A stretch of 64,000 nucleotides of DNA. It comes from Enterobacteria phage CHB7. Below, one piece after another: positions 24,938 to 63,982 of the stretch. The translations under genes and the position numbers were made by a program. The notes under the pieces were generated by a model, which was given only the letters and a program-made list of their open reading frames with translations, did no database searches and was not told the origin of the DNA. Location of the stretch: the sequence record MK562504.1; one strand, written 5' to 3'. Numbering within the stretch: the stretch's first letter is position 1; the number at the start of each line of letters is the position of its first letter.

Positions 24938-27637
24938 ATGGAAAACGTAGATTTTGAAAACTTGCACTTGGTAGGTGATACCGAAACTGATGGGTTACTC
25001 CTTGAGTTCACAAAAGCACACGTAATGGCATTTGCAGATTACAAAGATGACAGTGACGAACCTGCTGTGTGGGTCTTCACCGATGAACCTATTCTTGGTC
25101 ACAAGTGTACCAAATACATCAAAGGTGGTCTTCGTGAAGGTGTAGAGTTTGCTCTTAAGGCAAAGCGTCTCTGCATTCATAACGGTCTGGGTTATGACTG
25201 GTGGGTGTTCAATCACATTGCGCCGGACTTATGGAACTTTGACAATCCGAAGTGCAAACCTTGGGGAGACTTCTTTCAGGATTCTCTTATCCAGTCTCGT
25301 GTTCAGTGGATGGATAGACCTACACCGAAAGGTTACAAAGGTGCTCATGGTTTGGCTGCATGGGGTGCTCGTGTTGGTGTTCGTAAACCAGAGATTGAAG
25401 AGTGGGGCGTTTGGAATGCTGACATTCTGAACCGTGTTGTTGAGGATATTCGAATCAACGCCAAAACTAAACGTGCTCTTGATAACGAATACCTGAAGTT
25501 GAAGAAGTGTGGTGTAGACACTTACGAAACATACATGCGAGCTAAAGAAACATCTTTTTGGATGAGTCAGCAAGCTATCAACGGTTGGAAAGCTGATATT
25601 GAACTTATGCAGTTCCATGTCAAAGAACTTGACAGAATGACTGATGAATTAGCTGCTGAAGTTGAGCCTCATCTACCACCGACTATTAAGACGAAAGGCA
25701 AAGTCACTGGCGAAGAGTTTGCAAAAGCTTGGAACGAGTATGTGGAGACATTTGGTGAAGCAGATGGTTTGAAGCGTATCACTAAGTATCCAAAAACCAA
25801 GTTCCGTCAGCAGGTTCGTAATGGTGAGATGCAGACTTACGCTATCAAACCTTTTGGTAAACCGACTACCAAGATTTTCAACATTGAGAAGCGTAACTGC
25901 TACACTCCAACTAACACGGTTACGGGAGAAGAGTACAAAGAAGGTTTTGTGGCAATGAAAGATGCTCGTGCAGTTTGTAACGAGTTGAATGCTGTGATTG
26001 ATAAGAAGTGTAAAGACTGGAAACCAGTTAAAACTGTGAAGACTGTGAAGTACTACAACAATCACGTAGTAAATCACTTTGAACTTGAGTCAAGCCGTTA
26101 CACAGGTTTGATTGATGCGCCTTATACACCAATTGAGTTTGAAGTTTCACGCATGACTCAGGTTGCGGTTGTGAAGGATTATCTGAAAACTCTTGGCTGG
26201 ATTCCTGATGACTGGAACTACAAGAAAGATTCTGATGGTCGTCCGGTGAAGGTTTGTCGCTTCAAAGACAACAAGAAGATGATTCGTAAACATCCGAAAT
26301 GGCAAGAGATGGTAGACCGTTGTGGGTTGAACTATGTTGAACATGAAGGTGTACAGTACATCGAACACAACTGGTCTGTGAAGAAGTACACAGATTTGCT
26401 TGAGCCTTGCTTGATTCGTACTTCACCGAAACTGACTGAATCATCTTACGATACGATTGAAGGGGAACTTGGACAGAAGATTGCGAAGTACTATACTTTG
26501 ATGCACCGACGCAGAACTATCGAAAACTCAAAGGATGACGAAAAGGGTTGGTTAAACCAGATTCGTCCAGATGGTCGTTTGAGTGCTGGTGCAATGGTGT
26601 TTGGTACTTCAACTGGACGTATGACACAATATGGAATTGTGAACGTACCTTCTGGAGCTGCTGTTTACGGTGAACCGATGAGGGCAGTCTGGATTTGTGA
26701 AGAAGGAACAAACGTAGTTTCCGTTGATATGAACTCTGCACAGCTTGTTCTACTGTGTAACTTTATGGGTGATAAGGAGTTCACCAAAGCGGTAACTCAG
26801 GGTAAAGAAGAGATTGAGTTTATCCGTCAGGAAGACGGTAGATACTACTGTAAACACTTTGACGAATACCTGAATCCAGAAGTTGATAAGTATCTGCGTT
26901 ACGACTCTGAAAATGACTTGTACGTAGTCTACTCAGGTACTGATGCTCATACACTGAACAGTATCTACTTCAGCTTGAACGAAGAACAAGATATCTTGAC
27001 TTGTCGTATGACTCAGGATGAAAATCTTCTTCACGAAATCAGTAAGGGTCGTAAGAAAGCTAAGAATGGTATCTATGCGTTACTGTTCGGTGCTGGTGAT
27101 GAGAAGTTTGCTAAGACGATTAAAGCTGCGACTACTCAGGAAGGTGCATTAACTAAACAGACTTACTTTGTGCGTTTGCCGAAGATTAAGAAACTGTTAG
27201 ATGACTTGGAAGCTGACTTTAAAGCAACTAAGAAAGCACTCGAAGAAGTATTTGGTAAGACTGCTGCAATTGCTAAAGGTGGTTTTGTCAAGGTTGCTGG
27301 AGCATGGTTGTGGTGTAAGTCTCCACACAAACTGTTGAACTACTTGCTGATGGGTTCAGAGGCACAAGTTCAGAATGAAGCAATCAACCTTGCATGTCGT
27401 CGTATGATTGATGAAGGTTTGATGAAGTTGAACGGTCGTAAGCCAGCTATCGGTGCTCGTTTACTCTGTGCATATCACGATGAAACAAGTTGGGAATGTC
27501 CAGAGAGCATGACAGCAGAAGTTAAGGCTGTGACTGACTGGTACTACGGTCAAGCTTCTAAGAACTTAGGGCTTCGTAAAGAAACTCTGGTAACAGGGAC
27601 TGGTAAAGTTGGTAAGTCTTGGTATGAGGTGCATTGA
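24938..27637 (+). CDS. DNA polymerase, family A
   Basis: 899 aa; N-terminal exonuclease motif (DTETDG), motif B-like RKKAKNGIYALLFG and motif C-like YHDE. Confidence 0.85.
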   Translation: MENVDFENLHLVGDTETDGLLLEFTKAHVMAFADYKDDSDEPAVWVFTDEPILGHKCTKYIKGGLREGVEFALKAKRLCIHNGLGYDWWVFNHIAPDLWNFDNPKCKPWGDFFQDSLIQSRVQWMDRPTPKGYKGAHGLAAWGARVGVRKPEIEEWGVWNADILNRVVEDIRINAKTKRALDNEYLKLKKCGVDTYETYMRAKETSFWMSQQAINGWKADIELMQFHVKELDRMTDELAAEVEPHLPPTIKTKGKVTGEEFAKAWNEYVETFGEADGLKRITKYPKTKFRQQVRNGEMQTYAIKPFGKPTTKIFNIEKRNCYTPTNTVTGEEYKEGFVAMKDARAVCNELNAVIDKKCKDWKPVKTVKTVKYYNNHVVNHFELESSRYTGLIDAPYTPIEFEVSRMTQVAVVKDYLKTLGWIPDDWNYKKDSDGRPVKVCRFKDNKKMIRKHPKWQEMVDRCGLNYVEHEGVQYIEHNWSVKKYTDLLEPCLIRTSPKLTESSYDTIEGELGQKIAKYYTLMHRRRTIENSKDDEKGWLNQIRPDGRLSAGAMVFGTSTGRMTQYGIVNVPSGAAVYGEPMRAVWICEEGTNVVSVDMNSAQLVLLCNFMGDKEFTKAVTQGKEEIEFIRQEDGRYYCKHFDEYLNPEVDKYLRYDSENDLYVVYSGTDAHTLNSIYFSLNEEQDILTCRMTQDENLLHEISKGRKKAKNGIYALLFGAGDEKFAKTIKAATTQEGALTKQTYFVRLPKIKKLLDDLEADFKATKKALEEVFGKTAAIAKGGFVKVAGAWLWCKSPHKLLNYLLMGSEAQVQNEAINLACRRMIDEGLMKLNGRKPAIGARLLCAYHDETSWECPESMTAEVKAVTDWYYGQASKNLGLRKETLVTGTGKVGKSWYEVH

Positions 27638-28149
27638 TGCAAGATTGTGGTTTTACTCATGAGCAATTAAAATCATGGATTCACTACGACCCCTTAACAG
27701 GGGTCTTAACTTGGATTGGTAGACCTCCTAACAGTGGTCGGGTGGTTATAGGCAGTCAAGCTGGGTCAATCAAAAGGACAAAATCTGGTGTGTATCTTCA
27801 TACACAGATACTAGGTTACAGGACAGGGAATCACCGTATTGCTTGGTTCTGGATGACTGGAAAATGGCCTGATAAACATATTGACCATAAGGATGGAGAT
27901 GGTCTAAACAATGCTTGGGAGAATCTTAGAGAAGCCACGAAAGAGCAGAACATGGCTAACAGGAGACAACCTAGAACATCAAAGAGTTTAAAAGGCACAA
28001 GTAGAAGCAAATCTGGAAAGTGGATTGCACAGATTAACCATAATGGAAAGACTAACCATATTGGCACATACATGACCGAGCAAGAAGCCCACGAAGCTTA
28101 CTGTGAAGCTGCTATAAAACTCCACGGAGATTTTGCAAAACTTAGTTGA
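27634..28149 (+). CDS. HNH homing endonuclease with AP2-type domain
   Basis: YDPLTGVLTW signature, HNH core (IDHKDGDGLNNAWENLR), AP2-like segment; overlaps the polymerase stop by 4 nt. Confidence 0.7.
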   Translation: MMQDCGFTHEQLKSWIHYDPLTGVLTWIGRPPNSGRVVIGSQAGSIKRTKSGVYLHTQILGYRTGNHRIAWFWMTGKWPDKHIDHKDGDGLNNAWENLREATKEQNMANRRQPRTSKSLKGTSRSKSGKWIAQINHNGKTNHIGTYMTEQEAHEAYCEAAIKLHGDFAKLS

Positions 28150-28201
28150 CAAGGTGCTCATGGAAGAGTACCTTATACTATATATTGTATAGGAGACTTG
28201 T

Positions 28202-28402
28202 ATGACTATTTCAGAAATTGAAGTTCAACTGCAATGTGCTGGATATTCTCAAAGTGAGATTGAGGCTATGTGCATCATCATTTGCAGTAGCCATAAGCAC
28301 CTCAAGCTTTCTAATGAAAATCTTTTCAAGGTTGATATTTTTATCGCTGGGGGCAAGATTATCAAGGATAAGACAGGCTACCTTAAAGGTGAACGTCTAT
28401 GA
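28202..28402 (+). CDS. hypothetical protein (66 aa)
   Basis: Small ORF at the head of a chain of overlapping plus-strand genes. Confidence 0.3.
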   Translation: MTISEIEVQLQCAGYSQSEIEAMCIIICSSHKHLKLSNENLFKVDIFIAGGKIIKDKTGYLKGERL

Positions 28403-28608
28403 GCCATCGTGGAAGAACTCATCTTGCCATGATGCAAGGGGCTTCAAAAGAGACTATCAAGAATCGGAAGAAAACTCTTTTTGACAGAATGAATAGACTC
28501 ATTGATAATGCAAGTCTACCTAACTCTGAAAAGGTTTTCTTGAAAGGGAATCTGAAGAGTATTGCACAGGAACTTATTGATATTGAACTTTGGAGACACC
28601 AAAAATGA
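28399..28608 (+). CDS. hypothetical protein (69 aa)
   Basis: Small basic ORF overlapping its neighbours. Confidence 0.35.
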   Translation: MSHRGRTHLAMMQGASKETIKNRKKTLFDRMNRLIDNASLPNSEKVFLKGNLKSIAQELIDIELWRHQK

Positions 28609-28856
28609 GCAATAAAGAGCAAGAAGCTTTAGCAATCTTCAAGAGCGAAGACAAATCAATAGCTTTTGTCTCAGAGGCTTGGTGCAGAGATTTGGGGTAT
28701 GATTGGTATCTCTTCTTATGCGCTAAGAAAGATGTTAAGCCAGTTGATGAAACCCGATTCAAAGAACTGTATAATGTCTGCCAAGAGGGTTATGAAGAAC
28801 ATTACAAAGGTTCTTTGAATCCTGTAAATTCAAAAGCTTCAGATTTATTTTATTGA
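28605..28856 (+). CDS. hypothetical protein
   Basis: ATG at 28605 overlaps the upstream stop (ATGA); the track shows a TTG-initiated extension from 28590. Confidence 0.4.
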   Translation: MSNKEQEALAIFKSEDKSIAFVSEAWCRDLGYDWYLFLCAKKDVKPVDETRFKELYNVCQEGYEEHYKGSLNPVNSKASDLFY

Positions 28857-28866
28857 GAGGTTTAAA

Positions 28867-29112
28867 ATGTTAAAATTATTGATACCAGCTTTAGCAGTCC
28901 TACTGGTTGGGTGTAACCCTTCTTATGAGAATAAGGATGCTTCTTACAGACTTCCTCCAGAAATGCAAGACTGCAAGATTTATAAGCTTAATGGTGATGC
29001 CATTAGCAGGGATGTTATTGTAGTTCGCTGCCCAAATTCTCAGACGACAACTTCTTACAAGTATGGGAAGAATAGTCAGTCACACGCCACAGTTTTTGAT
29101 GAGGGATATTGA
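28867..29112 (+). CDS. lipoprotein
   Basis: Signal peptide with lipobox (MLKLLIPALAVLLVG-C) followed by an 80-aa mature region with several cysteines. Confidence 0.55.
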   Translation: MLKLLIPALAVLLVGCNPSYENKDASYRLPPEMQDCKIYKLNGDAISRDVIVVRCPNSQTTTSYKYGKNSQSHATVFDEGY

Positions 29113-29113
29113 T

Positions 29114-29320
29114 ATGCAGGTTCTGGTAAACTTTATCTATAAGTATGAAAACATCTTCAGCACTATGACTGTAGCTCAACGCAATCCAGTTATTCCCCGA
29201 GAAGGGGAGACTGTTGAGATTAATGATTGGAACTACAGAGTTGAAGAGGTCAAGCATAAACTTAAAGATGGTTATGACCACCAAGTTGTAAATGTGTATT
29301 TAAAAGGTAAGTGGCAATGA
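29114..29320 (+). CDS. hypothetical protein
   Basis: ATG at 29114 directly after the lipoprotein stop; the track shows a longer upstream extension. Confidence 0.35.
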   Translation: MQVLVNFIYKYENIFSTMTVAQRNPVIPREGETVEINDWNYRVEEVKHKLKDGYDHQVVNVYLKGKWQ

Positions 29321-29559
29321 GTAGAGAAGACCAGTTAATTGATATGCAAAATGACAAAAATGAGGCAATATCCATAATCCCAATATTGTGGGGGCATGAC
29401 TGCACATATGGTAACTATCTGTGTGTTTGTGAAGACCGAAACATTGAACCCGTAAGCCGTGATGAGTATCAAAAACACTTAAAGGCTCTTGACAATTACT
29501 TCACAGATAATAAATGCTCTCAGATTTCAAGTGAGGTCTTGCATGAAGATTTTTATTAA
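29317..29559 (+). CDS. hypothetical protein
   Basis: ATG at 29317 overlaps the upstream stop (ATGA); the track ORF begins with GTG at 29311. Confidence 0.35.
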   Translation: MSREDQLIDMQNDKNEAISIIPILWGHDCTYGNYLCVCEDRNIEPVSRDEYQKHLKALDNYFTDNKCSQISSEVLHEDFY

Positions 29560-29640
29560 AGTTATTGATGAAGATTTTGGAGGGTGCTCTTGGCACTCAT
29601 TTTTCACAAAAGGTTGTCTAGCTTGTGAGGCACGTAATAA

Positions 29641-30744
29641 ATGACAATTCTGTACAAACAAAATAAAGATGGTTCTTTCAACGTCTGGTCATGCGTTGCT
29701 GTAGGTGACAAAGTGGTTACCACGTATGGCAAAGAAAATGGCAAGATGATGTTTGAAGAGTACACAGTAGAACCAAAAAACATCGGCAAAAAGAATGAGC
29801 GTAACGCTGAACAGCAAGCTCTCTTTGAAGTTGCTGCTAAATACAAGAAGCAGGTTGACCGTAAAGGCTATGCTTATTCAAAATCTGCTGCACAGGAAGT
29901 TGAGAAGGTTGGTGTACAGCTTGCACATGATGCTGCCAAGGTTAGTCATGCAAAGTATCTGAAGTTCCCTGCTGATGCTCAACCGAAACTTGATGGTGTT
30001 CGTTGCAGAATTTCTCGTCATCAGAGTATTGGTGGGACATTTACAGCTTATTCTCGTGAGAATACTGTTTACAATGTCCCTGAAGAGTTGATTCCAGATT
30101 TACTCATGATGCTCAAACTCCATAAAGATGTTGATGAGTTTGACGGTGAGATTTATGCTCATGGTTGGGACTTGGAAGATATTGTATCAATGATTAAGAA
30201 TGTTGACAATCCAGACCGTCACCTACTTAAATTCTACTGGTATGATATCTGTGATAATTCTAAAACTTGGCCTGAGCGTCGTGAAATAATTGATAACTCA
30301 CCAATTGTTGAGCTAGGTGATGCTTGCAGGGTTGTACCTGTTCAAACTATCCGTGTTAACTCTTGGGAAGAGTTTGATAAAGCTCATGATAATTGGGTTA
30401 AGCTGAAGTTTGAAGGGGCAATGTACCGCTCCATTTCAGCAGACTCTTTCTATGAGTGTGGTCACCGTTCATACTTCCTAATTAAGCATAAGAAGATGCA
30501 CACGGAAGAATTTAAAGTAACTGGTGTGAAGACTGATAAACGTGGTCATGGTAAGTTTGTTGTAGAGACACTTCCTAACGTCTTTGTTGATGTTTCATGG
30601 AAAACTACCCATGAGAAGAAACAGTATCTTGCTGAACATCCTGAAGAATTTATCGGGAAACCTTTGACCGTTCAGTTCCAGAAGATGACTCGTAAGGGTT
30701 CTTTGCAGTTCCCTGTTGGTCTCGTTATACGAGATTATGAATAA
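29641..30744 (+). CDS. ATP-dependent DNA ligase
   Basis: Adenylation motif KxDG (PKLDGVR) at the expected position; 367 aa, similar in size to T7 ligase. Confidence 0.7.
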   Translation: MTILYKQNKDGSFNVWSCVAVGDKVVTTYGKENGKMMFEEYTVEPKNIGKKNERNAEQQALFEVAAKYKKQVDRKGYAYSKSAAQEVEKVGVQLAHDAAKVSHAKYLKFPADAQPKLDGVRCRISRHQSIGGTFTAYSRENTVYNVPEELIPDLLMMLKLHKDVDEFDGEIYAHGWDLEDIVSMIKNVDNPDRHLLKFYWYDICDNSKTWPERREIIDNSPIVELGDACRVVPVQTIRVNSWEEFDKAHDNWVKLKFEGAMYRSISADSFYECGHRSYFLIKHKKMHTEEFKVTGVKTDKRGHGKFVVETLPNVFVDVSWKTTHEKKQYLAEHPEEFIGKPLTVQFQKMTRKGSLQFPVGLVIRDYE

Positions 30745-30828
30745 AATTTGTTGACATACCCTCTCCGGTAGTTATACTAGCAATATAAAATTTGATATAG
30801 GAACTACCGGATGAGTTAGGAGAAGAAA

Positions 30829-31209
30829 ATGAAAAAGATTATGATAGGTGTCATTCTGGCAACTCTGAGTTTTGGTGCATCAGCTATGAAGATGCCTGAA
30901 GCAGACTTTAGCAAGGTCTCTATGGAGGCTTGTCAGATTGTTCGTAAAGTCGTAACAGATGCTGGAGAGTTGACTAAACCGTTATCTTCTCCAACCGTCA
31001 TGGAAATGTCTGACCGTATCACTGATTACAATTATCGTGTGATGGCAGACTACTACGAAGCTGTTTCTGATGCTATGGTCACTCAGGATGTTGACTTGCT
31101 TGATGACAAAGACATTGAGAAGGTTGAAGATACTAAACGTGATATGATGGATGAAACGTTTAAAGGTGTTCATTACTTTGTTGAAAAGCGCACTTGTGTA
31201 GGTCTATGA
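30829..31209 (+). CDS. secreted/periplasmic protein (126 aa)
   Basis: Cleavable signal peptide (MKKIMIGVILATLSFGASA), acidic mature region with two cysteines; AGGAGA ribosome-binding site. Confidence 0.5.
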   Translation: MKKIMIGVILATLSFGASAMKMPEADFSKVSMEACQIVRKVVTDAGELTKPLSSPTVMEMSDRITDYNYRVMADYYEAVSDAMVTQDVDLLDDKDIEKVEDTKRDMMDETFKGVHYFVEKRTCVGL

Positions 31210-31210
31210 T

Positions 31211-31414
31211 ATGAAGAAGAATCGTTGCAGGAAGAACTATGGAGAAGTGCTTGACGACGAAGGTCATGTCATCTTCCGAGTTTACTGTGCAGATGACTCT
31301 GAAGTAGATAAAGCACTTGATGACTATATTAATGGTACTCGTGAAAACGTCAGAGCAACAAACATAGATTCATTGATTGACACTTCCAGAAAACGGAGGA
31401 AGAAAGATGAATGA
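31211..31414 (+). CDS. hypothetical protein (67 aa)
   Basis: Small ORF whose stop overlaps the next start. Confidence 0.35.
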   Translation: MKKNRCRKNYGEVLDDEGHVIFRVYCADDSEVDKALDDYINGTRENVRATNIDSLIDTSRKRRKKDE

Positions 31415-31706
31415 AGTCTTTGACCCTTACGCCCCACAAGATAAGTGGGAAGCTGATAGAGAGTATGAGATGGAAAGTTATATCTGTCCGATGGATGTAG
31501 ACGAAATGAGAGAGTTCGTTGCATTCCGTTTTGAAAAAGAAATTGAGAAAAGAAAACTTTCTCAGGCACAAGTTGCAAAAATTTGTGATATCTCTCAAAG
31601 TCGTGTTTCCAACATTGTCAACGGTACTGGAAAGATTACCCTTGAATACATGTTGAAAGCTTGTGAAAAACTTGGTGTTAACTTCAACTTAAGGCTGTCG
31701 GATTAA
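31407..31706 (+). CDS. HTH (XRE-like) DNA-binding protein
   Basis: C-terminal helix-turn-helix signature (LSQAQVAKICDISQSRVSNIVNG); start set at ATG 31407 with a GGAGGAAG ribosome-binding site. Confidence 0.45.
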   Translation: MNEVFDPYAPQDKWEADREYEMESYICPMDVDEMREFVAFRFEKEIEKRKLSQAQVAKICDISQSRVSNIVNGTGKITLEYMLKACEKLGVNFNLRLSD

Positions 31707-31707
31707 T

Positions 31708-32067
31708 ATGAAACGTGAAAATGCAATCTTCAAAGGTAACTTTGCAATTGGCTTCTACGGAAAACCTACTGAAACTGAGAAGCAGTATGGTAAATACCTC
31801 CTTGATGACCTGATTGATTATGTCCAAGAAGGGCTAATTAAACACTCTGAGAAGAATCGTGTGAAAGGTTATATGGCTGTAGGTTCAGCAATCTCTAACA
31901 TTAAACTGGAGACGACATGTGCAAAAGAAGTTAGAGACCACTTTATCCGAGACCTTCACAGTAACCTTGATGGTGTTGATGTTATGTGTGCTTGGCTTGA
32001 TGTTGATGGTGCTAAGTATACAACTTTCGTATTTAAAAATGAGGATATCAAATGTCTCTTCCCGTAA
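31708..32067 (+). CDS. hypothetical protein (119 aa)
   Basis: Intact ORF. Confidence 0.4.
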   Translation: MKRENAIFKGNFAIGFYGKPTETEKQYGKYLLDDLIDYVQEGLIKHSEKNRVKGYMAVGSAISNIKLETTCAKEVRDHFIRDLHSNLDGVDVMCAWLDVDGAKYTTFVFKNEDIKCLFP

Positions 32068-32552
32068 AAATTGACTTGTTCTTTGGATACAATCTGATGA
32101 CAGGGTGTATGCTTAGTCTTCCAAAGTCTCCTTATCGTACTGAGAAGGGTGCTGTGAAACGTGCTGCACACTACAATAATGACTTAGGTCGTTTGCAGAC
32201 GATTTACAAGTGGCTTGAAGAAGATGGTCGAGTAAATGAGTACTTCCATCAGCTTCGTATGGCTAACGAAGAAAATAAGATGGGCTATGAACTGTTCCCA
32301 CGTCTTTACAAAGTGACTTCACCAACTTCTCAAACTTGGAATGAGAAATCTATTGAGGGTTACAAAAAGGTCACAATGTCTCCGTTTAGTAGTGGTGCAG
32401 AGTTTGAGAAGCTACGTGAGATAATTTATCAGACTGTTGCAAAGCGTGTTGCAAAGGGTCTTTCTTATAATGAAAAGATTGACTGGAACACTCAAAAAGT
32501 TATACAATTCTTTGCATACGATAATGACAAACAAACTTTTGTAGAGGTTTAA
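32052..32552 (+). CDS. hypothetical protein (166 aa)
   Basis: Intact ORF. Confidence 0.4.
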   Translation: MSLPVKIDLFFGYNLMTGCMLSLPKSPYRTEKGAVKRAAHYNNDLGRLQTIYKWLEEDGRVNEYFHQLRMANEENKMGYELFPRLYKVTSPTSQTWNEKSIEGYKKVTMSPFSSGAEFEKLREIIYQTVAKRVAKGLSYNEKIDWNTQKVIQFFAYDNDKQTFVEV

Positions 32553-32553
32553 C

Positions 32554-33072
32554 ATGAAGATTGGAAACAGCTTAACAGAGCCAGAAGCAATTCTGCTGAA
32601 GGGTGTTATCAAAGAGCACCTGAAAAATCGTAGACTCCAAGAAGGTACAATCCTGATTGAGACAAACTACGAAGCTGGAACGATTGAGTTTCTTGATGGA
32701 GATACTGGTGATGCACTTTGCCTTTTACCAACTCACCTCTTCACTACTGAGTTCCGAGATTCCAAATCAATCTCTGTGAAGCTGGTTCCAAGCATTGAGT
32801 TGTATGAAGGTACACAGTACCCACGTAGCTTCAAAGCCTTACTTAACATCTTCATAGATGATATTGTAGATTTGGTAAGGCCGGAAGCTGGTGAGTATGT
32901 AATCACTGCTGAATGTCAGAATAGTAGCTACATCACTCTTGCTGGCAATCTTTCGACGATGAACTTCTTAGATTTCATCCCAAAGCACTTTGAGGACTTC
33001 CTTTCATCGTGTGGCGATGACCTTGATTTCATTGTAAAACTGGAACAAGAGTATAAGGTGAACAAGAAATGA
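32554..33072 (+). CDS. hypothetical protein (172 aa)
   Basis: Intact ORF. Confidence 0.4.
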   Translation: MKIGNSLTEPEAILLKGVIKEHLKNRRLQEGTILIETNYEAGTIEFLDGDTGDALCLLPTHLFTTEFRDSKSISVKLVPSIELYEGTQYPRSFKALLNIFIDDIVDLVRPEAGEYVITAECQNSSYITLAGNLSTMNFLDFIPKHFEDFLSSCGDDLDFIVKLEQEYKVNKK

Positions 33073-33338
33073 AAATCTTTAAAGTTGAACATTGTTACAT
33101 GGAGAGTGGTGAGCCAATTCGTTGTCCTCATTGTGGTGGTACAGACTTCCAAGGTGAGGTTAAAGATATTGTCTCTGGTCATGTAGCAGAAGAGTATACT
33201 CGTTGCCGTGGCTGTATGAATATTGTTTCATTTTGGGCTTATGGGAGTTATGAGCCACATCCACATATTATTTACCATCCAGTTAAAGTAGTGAAGAACG
33301 TCATCAACTGGTTTATCATTAAAGGATTTTTCAAATGA
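33069..33338 (+). CDS. zinc-ribbon protein (89 aa)
   Basis: CPHCGG...CRGC four-cysteine motif. Confidence 0.4.
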   Translation: MKIFKVEHCYMESGEPIRCPHCGGTDFQGEVKDIVSGHVAEEYTRCRGCMNIVSFWAYGSYEPHPHIIYHPVKVVKNVINWFIIKGFFK

Positions 33339-33880
33339 TTCGTTTAGTATTTGCAAGTGGTCGTAAAGGTGAGTTTGGTACTCCTGATGGGATGCCTTGG
33401 GAACGCAACCGTGAAGACATGAAAGAGTTTAAAAAGCTGACTCAAAACCAGCTTGTAATCATGGGTAACGAGACTTTCAAGACTCTTGGACGTAAACCTT
33501 TACCAAATCGTGAGAACATGATTCTGTCAAACAACCTCCCGTATTACGGGATAGATTTTGATAATGATGGTTTTGTTATTGCAAAGGTTGACCCAGATTC
33601 TTTCGGTGCATTCTTGAAAAAGATTGACAGTCAGATTGATGAAAATGTCTGCGTGATTGGTGGTGCAAACATCTTGAAAGCAGCTTTACCGTTTGCTGAT
33701 GAAGTTTACCACACAGTTATCTATGAAATTACTAAAGAGCCAACTGTGTATCTTCCTGAAGAGGGATTCTTTGAGTATTTACACGAGCCTGAACTATTTG
33801 CTAGAATACAGGCTAAACCTCTGGATGATAAATCTGGGTTGGTCAATTTCTATGTTCCACAAGTAAGAGGACGTTTCTGA
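33335..33880 (+). CDS. frd: dihydrofolate reductase
   Basis: N-terminus MIRLVFASGRKGEFGTPDGMPW and VIGGANILKAALPFADE align with the T4 Frd/DHFR pattern. Confidence 0.75.
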   Translation: MIRLVFASGRKGEFGTPDGMPWERNREDMKEFKKLTQNQLVIMGNETFKTLGRKPLPNRENMILSNNLPYYGIDFDNDGFVIAKVDPDSFGAFLKKIDSQIDENVCVIGGANILKAALPFADEVYHTVIYEITKEPTVYLPEEGFFEYLHEPELFARIQAKPLDDKSGLVNFYVPQVRGRF

Positions 33881-33881
33881 T

Positions 33882-34778
33882 ATGTCACAAGCAGATGTAA
33901 GCTACAAAAATATTCTGAACCACGTTTTAACAGTTGGCGAGCAGCGTAAAACCCGAACTGGTTCTGTAATTTCAACGTTCTCACCCCCAGAGTTTCGTTT
34001 TGATATGCGTACTGGTTTTCCTTTACTAACCTCTAAACAGGTTCTGACCAGACAAGTTATCGGAGAAGCTTTATGGTTCTTGAATGGTGAGAATAAACTT
34101 GGTCATCTTCGCTATCGTACTTGGGGAGAAAATGATGGAGAACGTTGGACAATTTGGACAAATGACTTCGAGCGATGGCTTAAAACAACGTATGCAAGTG
34201 AGCAAGATTGGCTTGATGATGCAGGTGGACGAATCTACGGTGTACAGTGGAGAGCCTCAGAAGGTCATGGTGGCGTTACAGTTGACCAGCTAGATAATCT
34301 GATTACCAAGATGAAAAAGTCTCCTACAGACCGTTACATGCTGGTTAATGCTTGGAATGCTGCTGATATATCAGCTAATGCAATGGCTTTACCACCTTGT
34401 CATGTGCTTTTCCAGATTTACATCTCAAATACTGGTGAAGTTGATTTAAAATGGTATCAACGTTCTGTAGACAGCTTCTTAGGTTTACCATTTAACATTG
34501 CATCTTATGGTTTTATCTTGGAAGTGCTTTGTAAGATGACTGGATACACACCTCGTTATCTGATTGGTACTTTTGGTGATACTCAGATTTATCAAAACCA
34601 TATGAATCAGGTATTCCAGCTTTTAGGTAATGAAGAGTTTCCTGCACCAAAGTTTGAGATTATCCAAGATTTGAAATGTCTGGATGACCTCAAACATATG
34701 ACTGCAAGTGACTTTATCGGTGGTTTCAAAGACTATCGACATGCTGGGAAGATTGAAGCTCCTTTGTCAGTAGGTTGA
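33882..34778 (+). CDS. thyA: thymidylate synthase
   Basis: Conserved ThyA blocks: RTGTG-like RTGSV, GFPLLTSK, active-site LPPCH, and FLGLPFNIASY. Confidence 0.85.
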   Translation: MSQADVSYKNILNHVLTVGEQRKTRTGSVISTFSPPEFRFDMRTGFPLLTSKQVLTRQVIGEALWFLNGENKLGHLRYRTWGENDGERWTIWTNDFERWLKTTYASEQDWLDDAGGRIYGVQWRASEGHGGVTVDQLDNLITKMKKSPTDRYMLVNAWNAADISANAMALPPCHVLFQIYISNTGEVDLKWYQRSVDSFLGLPFNIASYGFILEVLCKMTGYTPRYLIGTFGDTQIYQNHMNQVFQLLGNEEFPAPKFEIIQDLKCLDDLKHMTASDFIGGFKDYRHAGKIEAPLSVG

Positions 34779-34780
34779 TA

Positions 34781-34812
34781 GATACAAAAAAGGCTCCTTT
34801 TTACGGGAGCCT
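34781..34812. terminator. bidirectional intrinsic terminator
   Basis: Hairpin AGGCTCC-TTTTTAC-GGGAGCCT flanked by A-run and T-run, between convergent thyA and the minus-strand block. Confidence 0.5.
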
Positions 34813-34817
34813 TAAAC

Positions 34818-35192
34818 TTATTTTTTCTTAGCGTTTTGAGTGTTCTGTTCAGTGATTGCTTGCAAAGCTGATACAGACTGTGCTAGGTTATTAACACTGT
34901 CAGAGAATTTATCAAGGGTTTTGGTCAACTTGGCGTTTTCACCCTTTACGTTCTCTAGCTGAACTTTCTGGTTCTCCATGCCTAATTGCAGGAGTTTCAT
35001 GTCAGACTGCAAATCACGAATAGCTGAATAGTTGCTTTTGTTGTAACTATCAAGCTGTTGTAACTTTGTCGAAACGGAAACTTCCTGCTTCCCACTAGAC
35101 ACCTGCATTGTAGTGTACATACCAATTACACTGAAGATACCCACAACAATTGCACCAATGTTATTTTTGAAAGCATCCTCTAACCACTTCAT
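34818..35192 (-). CDS. membrane-anchored coiled-coil protein (124 aa)
   Basis: N-terminal hydrophobic helix (IGAIVVGIFSVIGMY) followed by a Q/K/L-rich coiled coil. Confidence 0.4.
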   Translation of the reverse strand: MKWLEDAFKNNIGAIVVGIFSVIGMYTTMQVSSGKQEVSVSTKLQQLDSYNKSNYSAIRDLQSDMKLLQLGMENQKVQLENVKGENAKLTKTLDKFSDSVNNLAQSVSALQAITEQNTQNAKKK

Positions 35193-61472: not shown

Positions 61473-61547
61473 TGGAGCATCCAGAGGGAATCGAACCCTC
61501 AACCTCAGTTTGGAAGACTGTAATTTTCCCGTTTAAACTATGGATGC
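61473..61547 (-). tRNA. tRNA-Gly (UCC)
   Basis: Anticodon loop CTTCCAA, T-loop TTCGATT, CCA. Confidence 0.6.
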
Positions 61548-61553
61548 ACTAAT

Positions 61554-61629
61554 TGGTGGAGAAGCAGGGAATTGAACCCTGTACTTAAGTTTGCAAAACT
61601 TATGTTTTAACCATGTAAACTACATCCCC
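61554..61629 (-). tRNA. tRNA-Ala (UGC)
   Basis: Anticodon loop TTTGCAA; G3-U70 wobble in the acceptor stem; T-loop TTCAATT; CCA. Confidence 0.65.
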
Positions 61630-61635
61630 AATGTT

Positions 61636-61711
61636 TGGTACAGGTGGAGGGAATTGAACCCATCGTCTTACTGATTAAGAGTCAGCCGCATAACCATTTT
61701 GCTACACCTGC
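61636..61711 (-). tRNA. tRNA-Lys (CUU)
   Basis: Anticodon loop CTCTTAA, T-loop TTCAATT, CCA. Confidence 0.6.
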
Positions 61712-61718
61712 ATTAATT

Positions 61719-61796
61719 TGGTAGGAGACAAGGGATTCGAACCCTCAAACACCAACTTCTAAGGATGGTAGGTTTACCAATTACCGTCAATCTCCC
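61719..61796 (-). tRNA. tRNA with anticodon UAG (Leu by anticodon), short variable region
   Basis: Anticodon loop CTTAGAA in an arm nearly identical to the Val(UAC) tRNA; T-loop TTCGAAT; CCA. Confidence 0.5.
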
Positions 61797-62024
61797 ATTA
61801 AATCTTTGTAGAGAACTGCTAAGACGCCAAAGCAACAATGGTATCAAATGCCTTAACAATTCTCTAAAAAGACCTAACTGGTCTTTGCATAGTCTTGTTT
61901 AATCCGGTGACTAGAACCTTTGGAGAGCTTGATATTATCTCTTCTCCGTGACACCTACTAGGTGCTTTGTTGTGCGTGTACGACAATACACGAGGGAAAC
62001 CGAACGCTGTACCAGAGCGTGGGC

Positions 62025-62366
62025 TTAAATCTTTAAGCTAAGTTCAGTCTTGGACTTGACATCTTTAGCTTTGTAGATGACGACTTTATCAAGTGGTTCA
62101 ATGTAAACAGCTAAGTAATCAACTTGAGAGTTATCAAAATTCATTATTCTATTTTCATTCTTGTTAGAACGAACTCTTTTCAGTTGCACTCTCCAAAGTT
62201 CACCTCTTTTGACTGATGTTGATTTTACCTCAACAGTCTCAATCAAACCATCTTTGTGAACTAGAAAGTCATACTTTGCATTATCTGTAGCTGGTGAATA
62301 CACTTCATAACCTCTTTTGAGGAAAGCTAATTGTGTAGCAATTTCACCTACTGAACCTTTCTTCAT
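62025..62366 (-). CDS. PD-(D/E)xK-type nuclease-like protein (113 aa) inside the tRNA array
   Basis: GSVGEIATQLAFLKRGYEV...DFLV...IETVEVKS has the spacing of a restriction-endonuclease-like core. Start set at ATG 62366 with an AAGGTGGTGA ribosome-binding site; the track extension runs into tRNAs. Confidence 0.45.
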   Translation of the reverse strand: MKKGSVGEIATQLAFLKRGYEVYSPATDNAKYDFLVHKDGLIETVEVKSTSVKRGELWRVQLKRVRSNKNENRIMNFDNSQVDYLAVYIEPLDKVVIYKAKDVKSKTELSLKI

Positions 62367-62388
62367 AATCACCACCTTAAAATTATTT

Positions 62389-62475
62389 TGGCAGAGAGTG
62401 CAGGAGTTGAACCCGTACCGTTTCCAGCAGCACCAGTTTTCAAGGCTGGTTGGTCTCCGTTGACCGCCACTCTCT
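62389..62475 (-). tRNA. tRNA-Ser (UGA), long variable arm
   Basis: Anticodon loop CTTGAAA, extended variable arm, T-loop TTCAACT, CCA. Confidence 0.55.
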
Positions 62476-62488
62476 CCGAAACAATCTT

Positions 62489-62571
62489 TGGCATGGGACG
62501 GAGGAATCGAACCCCTTTGAGTAAGTTTTGGAGGCTTACGCACATGCCTTAGTGTCTTAACATCGTCCCAT
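62489..62571 (-). tRNA. tRNA-Trp (CCA), atypical 83-nt form
   Basis: Anticodon stem GTAAG/CTTAC with loop CTCCAAA; T-loop TTCGATT; CCA; acceptor ATGGGAC/GTCCCAT. About 7 extra nt between acceptor and D-stem. Confidence 0.45.
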
Positions 62572-62713
62572 ATATTATTTCGAAGCTTACCGTATTATCA
62601 CAACACTGTAAAGCCCCTTCTCAGATTATTTACATGTTCTGGAAAACATGAGATACAGACCACCTCCCTACAGGAAGACCCGCTTAGGTCGTCTAAGTAA
62701 TCTGCTAACTATT

Positions 62714-62790
62714 TGGTAGCCAAGGTAGGAGTCGAACCTACTTACTCTCGAAGGTAGCTAACCTTCAGTAACTTTCCGACTTTCGTACAT
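62714..62790 (-). ncRNA. tRNA-like element / possible degenerate tRNA
   Basis: Perfect T-arm (GTAGG-TTCGACT-CCTAC) and 3' ...CTTGGCTACCA, plus a perfect GAAGG-TTAGCTA-CCTTC stem-loop, but I could not pair a 5' acceptor strand at a tRNA-compatible distance. Confidence 0.3.
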
Positions 62791-62840
62791 CTGTTAACAT
62801 GTATTCAGATGGCTTACTAGTGTTGTCTTGACCATTAAAC

Positions 62841-62917
62841 TGGCACACCCTACAGGACTCGAACCTGTAACTCAGTGCTTAGAAGGCACTTGCTCTATCC
62901 AATTGAACTAAGGGTGC
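62841..62917 (-). tRNA. tRNA-Arg (UCU)
   Basis: Perfect anticodon stem AGTGC/GCACT, loop CTTCTAA; T-loop TTCGAGT; CCA. Confidence 0.65.
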
Positions 62918-63167
62918 ATTCTTATCTTTAAAGGCTCTCTTAGAAAACCCTTAAAGATGCCCACATTATTAATCATACCGTGGGCGAGTACGCCAAATTC
63001 TTTGATGAGGGGTTGGAAGACCTCACTGGTGTTTAGCCTATTAAGCTACTGCCAGAAAAACATTATCGTTTGCATTTATTTTAGTTTGCAAAAATAGACG
63101 CTACGCTAACGAAAACTAAGGTTACTATAAAGTGGTCACATCTGAATGTCAACAACTTTATCGAATT

Positions 63168-63243
63168 TGGTAGTGGTAGCAGGAATCGAACCTGCGATGT
63201 TCGGTTATCAGCCGAGTGTTATGACCGTCTTAACTATACCACC
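63168..63243 (-). tRNA. tRNA-Ile (GAU)
   Basis: Anticodon loop CTGATAA, T-loop TTCGATT, CCA. Confidence 0.65.
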
Positions 63244-63245
63244 AT

Positions 63246-63322
63246 TGGAGGTTCAGATGGGATTCGAACCCACATTCATAGGGCTTATGAAACCCTTGCA
63301 TTACCTTATCTGCGACTGAACC
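63246..63322 (-). tRNA. tRNA-Met (CAU)
   Basis: Perfect acceptor GGTTCAG/CTGAACC, anticodon loop TTCATAA, T-loop TTCGAAT, CCA. Initiator, elongator or Ile2 identity not resolved. Confidence 0.65.
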
Positions 63323-63331
63323 ATAATAAGT

Positions 63332-63396
63332 TGCCCTTTGGAGAAGAACTATTGAGTGGGTGTTTCCAGCCGCGCAGGTGTTCTTCAGTTAAGGGC
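63332..63396. other. long imperfect inverted repeat
   Basis: GCCCTT...GAAGAAC...(GC-rich loop CCAGCCGCGCAGG)...GTTCTTC...AAGGGC forms a two-tier stem of about 65 nt between two tRNAs. Confidence 0.35.
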
Positions 63397-63401
63397 TAAT
63401 T

Positions 63402-63477
63402 TGGTAGGAGTGGAGGGATTCGAACCCTTCGCCTGTCAGATTAAAAGTCTGCCGCATCACCATTCTGCTACACTCCC
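63402..63477 (-). tRNA. tRNA-Lys (UUU)
   Basis: Anticodon loop CTTTTAA, T-loop TTCGAAT, CCA. Confidence 0.6.
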
Positions 63478-63659
63478 ATTGAATCATCTTTGCAGTAACC
63501 TACGCAAACCTTGCTAAAGGGTTTGTAGAGTCATTTCCTATTAAGCTAATCTAGAATCATGCTAAGGAAATTCATCGGCACTCATGGGACGACATTTAGC
63601 TCCATAAGTCACTGCAAAGAGGATTACCAGACCGTTGTTTATCTTAAGTGCTCCCATTA

Positions 63660-63745
63660 CACCAACACGCCGTAACGTGTGAAGGAATCGAACCTTCGCC
63701 TTTTCTTTACCAGAGAAATAGATTGTTTTATACTTGCTGTAAACG
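63660..63745 (-). ncRNA. tRNA remnant / pseudo-tRNA (putative)
   Basis: Good T-arm (GAAGG-TTCGATT-CCTTC) and a perfect anticodon-like arm (TTTCT-CTGGTAA-AGAAA), but no matching acceptor stem and no CCA. Confidence 0.25.
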
Positions 63746-63904
63746 GTCTTCTGTAAATTTGTTGAGCCAGACCAAGTTTTAAATTTTTCAAAATTAAATT
63801 GGCTTGAAATTTTTTAAGTTGGCTTGCTGAATTTGGTCTTCTGCTCCTTTAAAGAACACTCGTAAGAACTCTTTAAGGGAGGGGCTAAAAAGCCCTCTCA
63901 AATT

Positions 63905-63982
63905 TGGCGGTTACGAAGGGATTCGAACCCTCATCATCTCCCGTGACAGGGGAGTATTTTAACCAGATTAAACTACATAACC
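63905..63982 (-). tRNA. tRNA-Asp (GUC)
   Basis: Perfect anticodon stem CTCCC/GGGAG, loop CTGTCAC; T-loop TTCGAAT; CCA. Confidence 0.65.

Follow-up and report, generated by a model that had tools for sequence, protein, structure and literature searches.

We analyzed positions 28202-33338 of a stretch of 64,000 nucleotides (nt) of Enterobacteria phage CHB7 (sequence record MK562504.1); this whole stretch is termed the window. The interval is occupied by 15 closely packed plus-strand genes (g1 to g15), which overlap through an ATGA stop/start sequence at six junctions (g1/g2, g2/g3, g5/g6, g7/g8, g14/g15, and g15/dihydrofolate reductase) and are separated by a single nucleotide at four further junctions. 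Junctions of these two kinds are the majority and are compatible with translational coupling. Compared with related genomes, the interval divides into three parts, namely an accessory cassette (g1-g7), a DNA ligase gene (g8), and an operon conserved across the phage subfamily (g9-g15) that runs on into the genes for dihydrofolate reductase (DHFR) and thymidylate synthase, and we hold this architecture with high confidence. An earlier note, made from the sequence alone, had described about 15 plus-strand genes here and had singled out a lipoprotein with a lipobox (g4), a signal-peptide protein with two cysteines (g9), an XRE-like helix-turn-helix (HTH) protein (g11), and a zinc-ribbon protein (g15); all of its coordinates proved correct, and these four assignments are borne out by the evidence given below for each gene.

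Over its full length, the interval shows 94.8% identity to Escherichia phage mistaenkt (Suspvirus, Ounavirinae), in which the equivalent region comprises genes 64-78, and it matches 259 phage records, nearly all of them phages of Escherichia, Salmonella, Shigella, or Citrobacter or named Felixounavirus. We fetched five relatives, all Ounavirinae: mistaenkt and phiSUSP1 (Suspvirus), Sf14 and HP1 (Mooglevirus), and Bas63 (Felixounavirus). The gene order is identical in all five and thus across three genera, with a DNA polymerase, an optional HNH homing endonuclease, small open reading frames (ORFs), the DNA ligase, more small ORFs, DHFR, and thymidylate synthase, followed in the fetched relatives by convergent lysis and tail-fiber genes. 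Equivalents from phiSUSP1, Sf14, Moogle, and Bas63 have also been deposited. In this region, sequenced Ounavirinae have gene order, gene content, and 73-98% DNA identity in common with the interval, and their records name the ligase, a transcriptional regulator, DHFR, and thymidylate synthase, with the remaining genes entered as "hypothetical protein".

In the window, a plus-strand module extends from the polymerase to thymidylate synthase (24938-34778), with minus-strand genes on both sides. The end of the transcription unit is formed by DHFR (33335-33880, plus strand), the start of which overlaps the stop of g15, and by thymidylate synthase (33882-34778, plus strand), which completes it; a bidirectional intrinsic-terminator hairpin (34790-34813, no strand assigned) then closes the module. 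The GC skew is above zero only across ~25-35 kb of the window. From the GC skew, the terminator hairpin, and the shared gene order, we place the interval inside one plus-strand module.

Every one of the 15 ORFs matches a PHROG family, with E values from about 2e-7 to 4.5e-93. Measured against relatives of suitable divergence, the ratio of nonsynonymous to synonymous substitution rates (dN/dS) is 0.02-0.34 for g2, g4, g5, and g8-g15; in g3, g6, and g7 the substitutions are too few for a judgment. Purifying selection thus acts on most genes of the interval. Given a PHROG match for each ORF together with the low dN/dS values, we take the ORFs to be genuine genes and not chance reading frames; the coding status of g7 is the least certain, owing to its small number of substitutions.

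The left part of the interval is a mosaic. A 1.18-kb block carrying g1-g5 (28145-29321) has 98.0% DNA identity to Mooglevirus Sf14, whereas the flanks are far less similar to the same phage (polymerase, 86.5%; ligase, 89.1%; right-hand block from g9 to thymidylate synthase, 73%). This disparity indicates a recent exchange of a cassette between genera, bounded on the left by the intergenic element that precedes g1 and on the right by the junction of g5 with g6. Set against its Ounavirinae relatives, the interval joins a Mooglevirus-like g1-g5 block to a right-hand block of Suspvirus type, as in mistaenkt. Since phiSUSP1, of the same genus, has no g2, g3, g4, g6, or g7, the g1-g7 segment is a hyperplastic accessory cassette that varies even within a genus. 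The right-hand genes are another matter: each of the three genera sampled has g9-g12, g14, and g15, the representative of Felixounavirus alone lacks g13, and g9-g15 diverge fast, with 34-79% protein identity between genera (59-64% for the adjoining DHFR). The word "island", used for the whole interval in the earlier note, therefore suits g1-g7 and does not suit g9-g12, g14, and g15.

Between these two groups of small genes lies g8 (29641-30744, plus strand), which encodes a protein of 367 amino acids (aa) and was overlooked when the interval was described as consisting of short genes and of hypothetical ORFs devoid of recognizable motifs. Its translation contains the motif I sequence KLDGVR (KxDG), it scores 34.1 bits against PF01068 (cutoff 26.2) and E 1.5e-95 against phrog_114, and its protein identity is 89-93% across all relatives compared. 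On these matches, g8, the largest gene of the interval, is assigned as an ATP-dependent DNA ligase.

Sites of the form TTGACA-N14-24-TATACT occur only twice in the window, one in each of the interval's two intergenic gaps. Element 1 (28145-28198, plus strand) is a promoter-like sequence upstream of g1, with TTGACA at 28146-28151 and TATACT at 28174-28179, followed by a Shine-Dalgarno sequence. A 9-bp stem-loop (AAGGTGCTC/GAGTACCTT) sits exactly between the two boxes, and this hairpin is also the centroid of the predicted fold. About 50 nt of element 1 are nearly invariant in relatives from Suspvirus, Mooglevirus, and Felixounavirus regardless of the flanking genes, and the element forms the left edge of the mosaic block.

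Element 2 (30747-30811, plus strand) has TTGACA at 30751-30756 and, after 16 nt, TATACT at 30773-30778, an arrangement exactly conserved in all five relatives. It contains a 10-bp inverted repeat, of which the 5' arm (30764-30773) belongs to the spacer and abuts the -10 box and the 3' arm occupies 30802-30811. Across lineages, the 5' arm is formed by the last 8-10 nt of the spacer and the 3' arm lies 24-31 nt downstream. The stem exists in four versions (TCCGGTAGTT, CTGACGGGT, TAGTGGGT, and TGGTGAGTA), each perfectly complementary to its own partner; a stem of at least 8 bp arises in just 1-2% of shuffles per lineage, and the RNA fold has a z-score of -3.1. We considered the inverted repeat as an operator for g11, which is disfavored: the arms differ completely between genera and are ~37 bp apart from center to center. 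Because the recognition helix of g11 stays constant while the stem arms change, it is more likely that the stem is kept by base pairing than as a g11 operator. The -10 box and the presumed start site of element 2 lie in the loop of the hairpin, so that the whole hairpin would be found only in transcripts reading through from the ligase gene. We do not claim that it sequesters the Shine-Dalgarno sequence of g9; in the fold of this region the pairing is partial, and by inspection it is not conserved in other lineages. Neither stem is followed by a U-tract.

Homology breakpoints at 28145, 30743, and 30829 coincide with the two elements. The gap between the ligase gene and g9 is also an insertion hotspot, with the extra DNA placed between the promoter and g9: phiSUSP1 has an insertion of two additional ORFs (196 and 146 aa) downstream of its ligase, and Felixounavirus contigs from IMG/VR have from 0.24 to ~1.9 kb of extra DNA between promoter and g9. 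Elsewhere in the window, a further exact copy of the GTTGTTGACAT motif, accompanied by a TATAGT -10 box, is found on the minus strand at 63124-63156, inside an array of 21 tRNA genes on the same strand (58936-63982).

The two elements invite comparison with the promoter-early stem-loops (PeSLs) of T4-type phages, cassettes described by Arbiol et al. 2010 (PMC2839356) and Comeau et al. 2014 (PMC4122927). In common with PeSLs, both combine a sigma-70-like promoter with a stem-loop in an intergenic gap, beside small ORFan genes and at junctions of insertion, deletion, or replacement. PeSLs differ in being many dispersed copies that recombine mutually, whereas here only two elements occur in 64 kb, they have no long repeat in common, and neither extended motif is repeated. 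The PeSL spacer is 17 nt long, against 22 nt in element 1, and element 2, unlike PeSLs, has a loop of 24-31 nt that holds the -10 box and the presumed start site. To our knowledge, PeSLs have been described only in T4-like phages.

Two proteins of the interval carry predicted export signals. The first, g4 (28867-29112, plus strand), is an 81-aa prolipoprotein of the family Pfam DUF4884/phrog_902. Its N-terminus, MLKLLIPALAVLLVGC, reads as MLK-LLIPALAVL-LVGC, a classical lipoprotein signal with a lipobox LVGC at residues 13-16 and Cys16 as the predicted site of lipidation. We defined such a signal by an N-terminal positive residue, a hydrophobic core, and a lipobox [LVI][ASTVI][GAS]C within the first ~35 residues; g4 is the sole ORF in the window with a strong lipobox. 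Among close homologues the hydrophobic core varies and L-x-G-C is retained, a canonical lipobox is found in 93 of the 94 aligned family members (the remaining one has LFGC), and two further cysteines, C36 and C55, are conserved. Each of five distant homologues has both the lipobox and the same two cysteines. According to the Lol rule of E. coli, Asn at position +2 after the lipidated Cys predicts sorting to the outer membrane. The +2 residue of g4 is Asn, and we infer that g4 is lipidated and sorted to this membrane.

The g4 family reaches well outside the Ounavirinae. With tblastn, the mature domain was found in 564 phage records, among them phages of Vibrio (290), Acinetobacter, Erwinia, and Klebsiella and including E. 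coli and Erwinia jumbo phages. A family profile search gave 414 proteins, and among the matches listed all 120 carry a precomputed PF16225 (DUF4884) assignment. The same assignment is precomputed for the exact g4 protein, with no mark of a weak or faint match, and g4 matches phrog_902 with an E value of 8e-17, a family for which PHROG gives no function. A comparison of neighborhoods in unrelated phages revealed no gene conserved beside the family members, and our literature search met DUF4884 only as an annotation label and found no functional study of it or of the genes of the interval. The AF2 model of g4 (pLDDT 68) gave no fold match in a structure search.

As a small lipoprotein of outer-membrane type that has conserved cysteines, and as the one ORF in 64 kb with a strong lipobox, g4 could be the outer-membrane spanin of the phage, a lysis protein. 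Inner and outer spanin genes are reported in the Moogle and Michonne genome papers (PMC4319497, PMC4591319); the g4 homologue CPT_Moogle40, however, has the deposited label of hypothetical protein, and the annotation of the matching region names no spanin. None of the genes that adjoin or overlap g4 encodes a transmembrane segment at the N-terminus (maximum hydropathy of g3 and g5 below 0.8), and in other phages no partner gene accompanies the family. The spanin reading fails because neither neighbor has a membrane segment, and we regard it as highly improbable.

The second exported protein, g9 (30829-31209, plus strand; 126 aa, phrog_4332), starts with a Sec signal composed of MKK, IMIGVILATLSFG, and ASA|MK, with predicted cleavage after A19. 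The signal is retained in homologues of 34-60% identity, where the cleavage motif is AAA or AVA in Mooglevirus and VNA in Felixounavirus, and C35 and C123 are invariant across genera. The mature protein is acidic and helical. From these features, g9 is probably released into the periplasm and disulfide-bonded. Each of the 258 matching phage records contains the gene, these phages being in essence those that match the whole interval, and an exhaustive HMMER search of 1.84 billion representatives returned three clusters at 50% identity, all from Ounavirinae. Two further matches in that search are long repetitive proteins with repeat-inflated scores and were judged spurious. As the HMMER clusters all come from this phage group, g9 is to be seen as an orphan specific to the Ounavirinae. 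Its AF2 model, built from eight near-identical sequences, shows three helices at a pLDDT of 55; this weak model had no fold match in the PDB.

The last gene of the interval, g15 (33069-33338, plus strand), encodes an 89-aa protein of phrog_2993 with the pattern CPHC...CRGC and an FWAYG motif. Its four cysteines (C19, C22, C46, and C49) are invariant in seven sequences that include homologues from a Klebsiella phage and a T4-like Yersinia phage, and the FWAYG motif is common to these two distant homologues. Taking a zinc ribbon as two CxxC knuckles ~20-25 residues apart that are conserved in homologues, g15 carries the motif. Every score against the named zinc-ribbon families of Pfam is below cutoff. 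Among PDB sequences, the family profile matches ribosomal protein L33 best, with an E value of 0.024. In other phages the family occurs beside an exonuclease gene (Klebsiella phage) or a DNA methyltransferase gene (T4-like phages). Like Lar and the ECs_2282 CxxC zinc-binding prophage proteins, g15 is a small phage protein with two CxxC pairs; unlike them, it is extended at the C-terminus and carries a conserved FWAYG motif of its own, and its scores are below the cutoffs of those families. An identity of g15 with the restriction alleviation protein Lar was rejected at 16.3 bits against 39.6 for TIGR03655 (E 0.009) and 14.1 against 28.6 for PF14354 (E 0.058). In pairwise BLASTP with RalR/Lar of Rac, CPxCG alone aligns, and with YdaE nothing aligns.

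The earlier note had proposed that the exported proteins mediate superinfection exclusion or receptor masking and that the small genes hold host-takeover or anti-defense factors. In its full form, this explanation makes g4 and g9 agents of exclusion or receptor masking of the Llp, Cor, or T4 Sp/Imm type and the other ORFs factors of host takeover or of protection against restriction, CRISPR, or abortive infection. Export, predicted for the lipoprotein g4 and the soluble protein g9, is a property common to known exclusion proteins: Llp, Cor, and Sp are all exported. The mosaic and variable g1-g7 segment has the character usual for accessory and counter-defense regions, and g15 gives the weak, sub-threshold Lar matches mentioned above (NCBIfam E 0.009, Pfam E 0.058). 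In being a small phage lipoprotein, with ~60-65 mature residues and cysteines suited to a disulfide, g4 resembles T5 Llp and lambdoid Cor. When full-length profiles were compared, g4 and T5 Llp (the Llp sequence used has 100% identity to T5 records) reached a probability of 86%, the aligned part being the signal peptide; with the signal peptide removed, the hhalign probability between the mature-region profile and mature Llp was 1.5%, and homology was rejected.

Further comparisons also speak against such an explanation. Neither g4 nor g9 matches Cor, Imm, or Sp in Pfam or PHROGs, exclusion families are likewise absent from the NCBIfam scan, PADLOC returned zero matches, and g15 has only CPxCG in common with Lar/RalR, at scores far under the family cutoffs. 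Structure prediction followed by a fold search, which had been proposed as a way to reveal likeness to exclusion or anti-defense proteins, gave no match for either the g4 or the g9 model. The llp gene of T5 adjoins the gene of the receptor-binding protein, whereas g4 is located among small ORFs 1.2 kb downstream of the polymerase, with the tail-fiber genes more than 6 kb away on the opposite strand. Llp blocks the phage's own protein receptor (FhuA-type); the Ounavirinae are reported to recognize lipopolysaccharide and not protein receptors (PMC8594841), and the g4 family spans phages with different hosts and unrelated receptors. In addition, Bas63, which encodes homologues of g9-g12, g14, and g15, shows, according to a published description, remarkable sensitivity to Fun/Z and several restriction-modification systems (PMC8594841), which argues against a strong anti-defense effect of these genes. 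The proposal thus received no positive support in our searches, and we consider it quite unlikely.

Inside the operon, g11 (31407-31706, plus strand) encodes a 99-aa XRE-family HTH protein. It scores 45.8 bits against Pfam HTH_3 (PF01381; cutoff 23) and 32.3 bits against HTH_37 (cutoff 27), 21 PHROG regulator families match it, and its recognition helix, ISQ(S/A)RVSNI, is near-invariant across genera. Residues 1-22 (31407-31472; MNEVFDPYAPQDxWEADREAEM) are acidic, aromatic, and also nearly invariant across genera, which suggests a protein-interaction motif; this segment is better conserved than much of the HTH domain of the same protein. Judging from these matches, g11 most likely binds DNA and regulates the transcription of phage or host genes.

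Some of these features would also fit a mimic of an antitoxin that neutralizes a host toxin of the RelE/HigB type, which would otherwise abort infection. HTH_37 is above its Pfam cutoff, the best PDB sequence match of g11 is the antitoxin HigA2 (7ewc, E 0.0017), the almost invariant N-terminal residues resemble an interaction motif, and the layout of a C-terminal XRE HTH behind a short N-terminal extension is found in HigA2/HTH_37 antitoxins and XRE phage regulators alike. The HigA2 match, however, covers only the generic HTH (residues 36-93), the NCBIfam HigA model (TIGR02607) gives 25.8 bits against a cutoff of 47.7, and XRE HTH proteins are ordinary phage regulators. In contrast to HigA2 systems, g11 has no partner toxin gene and is encoded by a strictly virulent phage inside a replication module; neither g10 nor g12 matches RelE, HigB, or ParE, and g10-g11 and g11-g12 were rejected as toxin-antitoxin pairs in view of the lack of toxin-family matches. 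An antitoxin mimic is therefore very unlikely, and a transcriptional regulator is the likelier assignment for g11.

The other genes of the interval, all on the plus strand, are small. In the cassette, g1 (28202-28402; 66 aa, function unassigned, phrog_4230) is 98% identical to its Sf14 homologue and 35-39% identical to those of phiSUSP1, HP1, and Bas63; g2 (28399-28608; 69 aa, phrog_5180) is basic (isoelectric point 10.4), has a dN/dS of 0.03-0.08, and is absent from phiSUSP1; and g5 (29114-29320; 68 aa, phrog_4427) has a dN/dS of 0.05-0.31. The products of g3 (28605-28856; 83 aa, phrog_9065) and g6 (29317-29559; 80 aa, phrog_9065 at E 2e-7) are divergent paralogues, g6 being absent from Sf14, phiSUSP1, and Bas63; the two belong to the same PHROG, have VOG7861 in common in the mistaenkt record, and contain several cysteines each. 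The 33-aa micro-ORF g7 (29543-29644; phrog_20095) also contains cysteine. In the operon, g10 (31211-31414; 67 aa, phrog_4473) overlaps g11 by 8 nt and is followed, after g11, by g12 (31708-32067; 119 aa, phrog_4116), the basic g13 (32052-32552; 166 aa, phrog_9143), which is absent from Felixounavirus Bas63, and the acidic g14 (32554-33072; 172 aa, phrog_4422), which has 36% identity to its Bas63 homologue. Searches of the remaining ORFs in NCBIfam, PADLOC, and PDB sequences and of the region in Rfam gave nothing above threshold.

On another explanation, g10, g12-g15, and perhaps g11 are accessory components of replication or nucleotide metabolism, such as subunits of the replisome or of deoxynucleoside triphosphate synthesis or their regulators, and are not directed at the host. 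Their order between the ligase and DHFR/thymidylate synthase is fixed in three genera, they are joined by overlaps that include the ATGA of g15 and DHFR, they are under purifying selection, and the g15 family recurs near DNA-metabolism genes (exonuclease, DNA methyltransferase) in other phages. Against this, none of them has detectable similarity to replication or nucleotide-metabolism families, g13 is dispensable in Felixounavirus, and co-location in a phage module is weak evidence for a shared function. We view this explanation as possible and somewhat doubtful.

The reading that we favor, and consider on balance probable as a whole, is that the interval forms the central stretch of the module for replication and nucleotide metabolism in a Suspvirus, a myovirus of the Felix O1 type, and that it is built of three parts, organized in two promoter-headed units, and containing two envelope-directed products, g4 and g9. 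The first unit would be the g1-g7 cassette behind element 1, exchanged between genera; the core ligase gene g8 would stand between the two units of small genes; and the second unit would consist of g9-g15, DHFR, and thymidylate synthase, driven by a near-consensus host sigma-70 promoter with its -10 box within the compensated hairpin. Both units would be read by unmodified host RNA polymerase soon after infection. The early expression put forward in the earlier note is plausible in view of the host-type promoters and of the position in a replication/nucleotide-metabolism module, and a comparative paper labels the replication module early, also by inference (PMC8300805). In this second unit, g10 and g12-g15 would serve as conserved accessory factors of the DNA-metabolism program.

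For the envelope, we propose that g4 would be anchored in the outer membrane and g9 located in the periplasm, and that together they would alter the envelope of the infected cell. Since DUF4884 lipoproteins are encoded singly in virulent phages that are unrelated in receptor and host, we favor binding of g4 to a conserved envelope component over masking of a specific receptor. A plausible outcome would be that genome entry by later phages is blocked or that the envelope is stabilized until lysis. This function of envelope effectors is tentative, and we hold it as doubtful even where the rest of the favored reading is accepted. More unlikely still is the broader idea that DUF4884 lipoproteins form a class of envelope effectors and, as a separate matter, that the two elements are the Ounavirinae counterpart of PeSLs, coupling control of early transcription to modular gene exchange.

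Several observations weigh against the favored reading. The TTGACA-TATACT spacer of element 1 is, at 22 nt, too long for a standard sigma-70 promoter, for which reason this element may use a weaker TACCTT -10 box at 17 nt or need an auxiliary factor. When g4 and five diverse members of its family were scanned against a local copy of Pfam-A, DUF4884 was not returned for any of them, even at E values up to 10, whereas the precomputed table lists a confident match for them all; the DUF4884 assignment of g4 is thus second-hand. The +2 residue varies in the g4 family and is Asp in 28 of the 94 members, which means that localization may differ within the family. With pLDDT values of 68 for g4 and 55 for g9, the models are not strong enough to rule out remote similarities of fold. 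A literature search found no transcriptome or proteome-timing study for Ounavirinae, the timing being deduced from position and promoter type, and nothing in this analysis shows g4 or g9 affecting other phages.

Two neighbors of the interval deserve mention. A free-standing HNH homing endonuclease gene (27634-28149) separates the polymerase gene from the cassette of small genes; the two Mooglevirus phages Sf14 and HP1 lack it, and the versions in phiSUSP1 and Bas63 have no more than 44-47% identity to it, from which it appears to be an independently mobile insertion. Beyond the terminator, a 124-aa minus-strand protein (34818-35192), annotated as a holin in relatives, has one N-terminal membrane segment followed by a long C-terminal part rich in Gln, Leu, and Lys.

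In summary, the region is ordinary in kind, and hundreds of deposited genomes of Felix O1-like phages already contain it, with its genes entered as hypothetical. By predicted export signals, the search for function is narrowed to two of the 15 ORFs (g4 and g9) as envelope-directed, and two leads merit experiment: the family of DUF4884 lipoproteins and the hairpin within the promoter, which, with its compensatory changes, offers a tractable regulatory element for this phage group. Because DUF4884 is a single-gene module in many unrelated virulent phages of gammaproteobacteria, one experiment on g4 could provide an annotation for hundreds of genes. Wide use is made of Ounavirinae in diagnostics and biocontrol of Salmonella and E. 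coli, and exclusion or envelope changes caused by g4 or g9 would matter for the design of phage cocktails. If the envelope function holds true, DUF4884 lipoproteins would be an unrecognized and widespread class of envelope effectors of virulent phages, early, stand-alone, and acting on a conserved envelope machine, and would provide receptor-independent superinfection exclusion or envelope stabilization to carriers that include Ounavirinae, phages of Vibrio, Acinetobacter, Klebsiella, and Erwinia, and E. coli jumbo phages.

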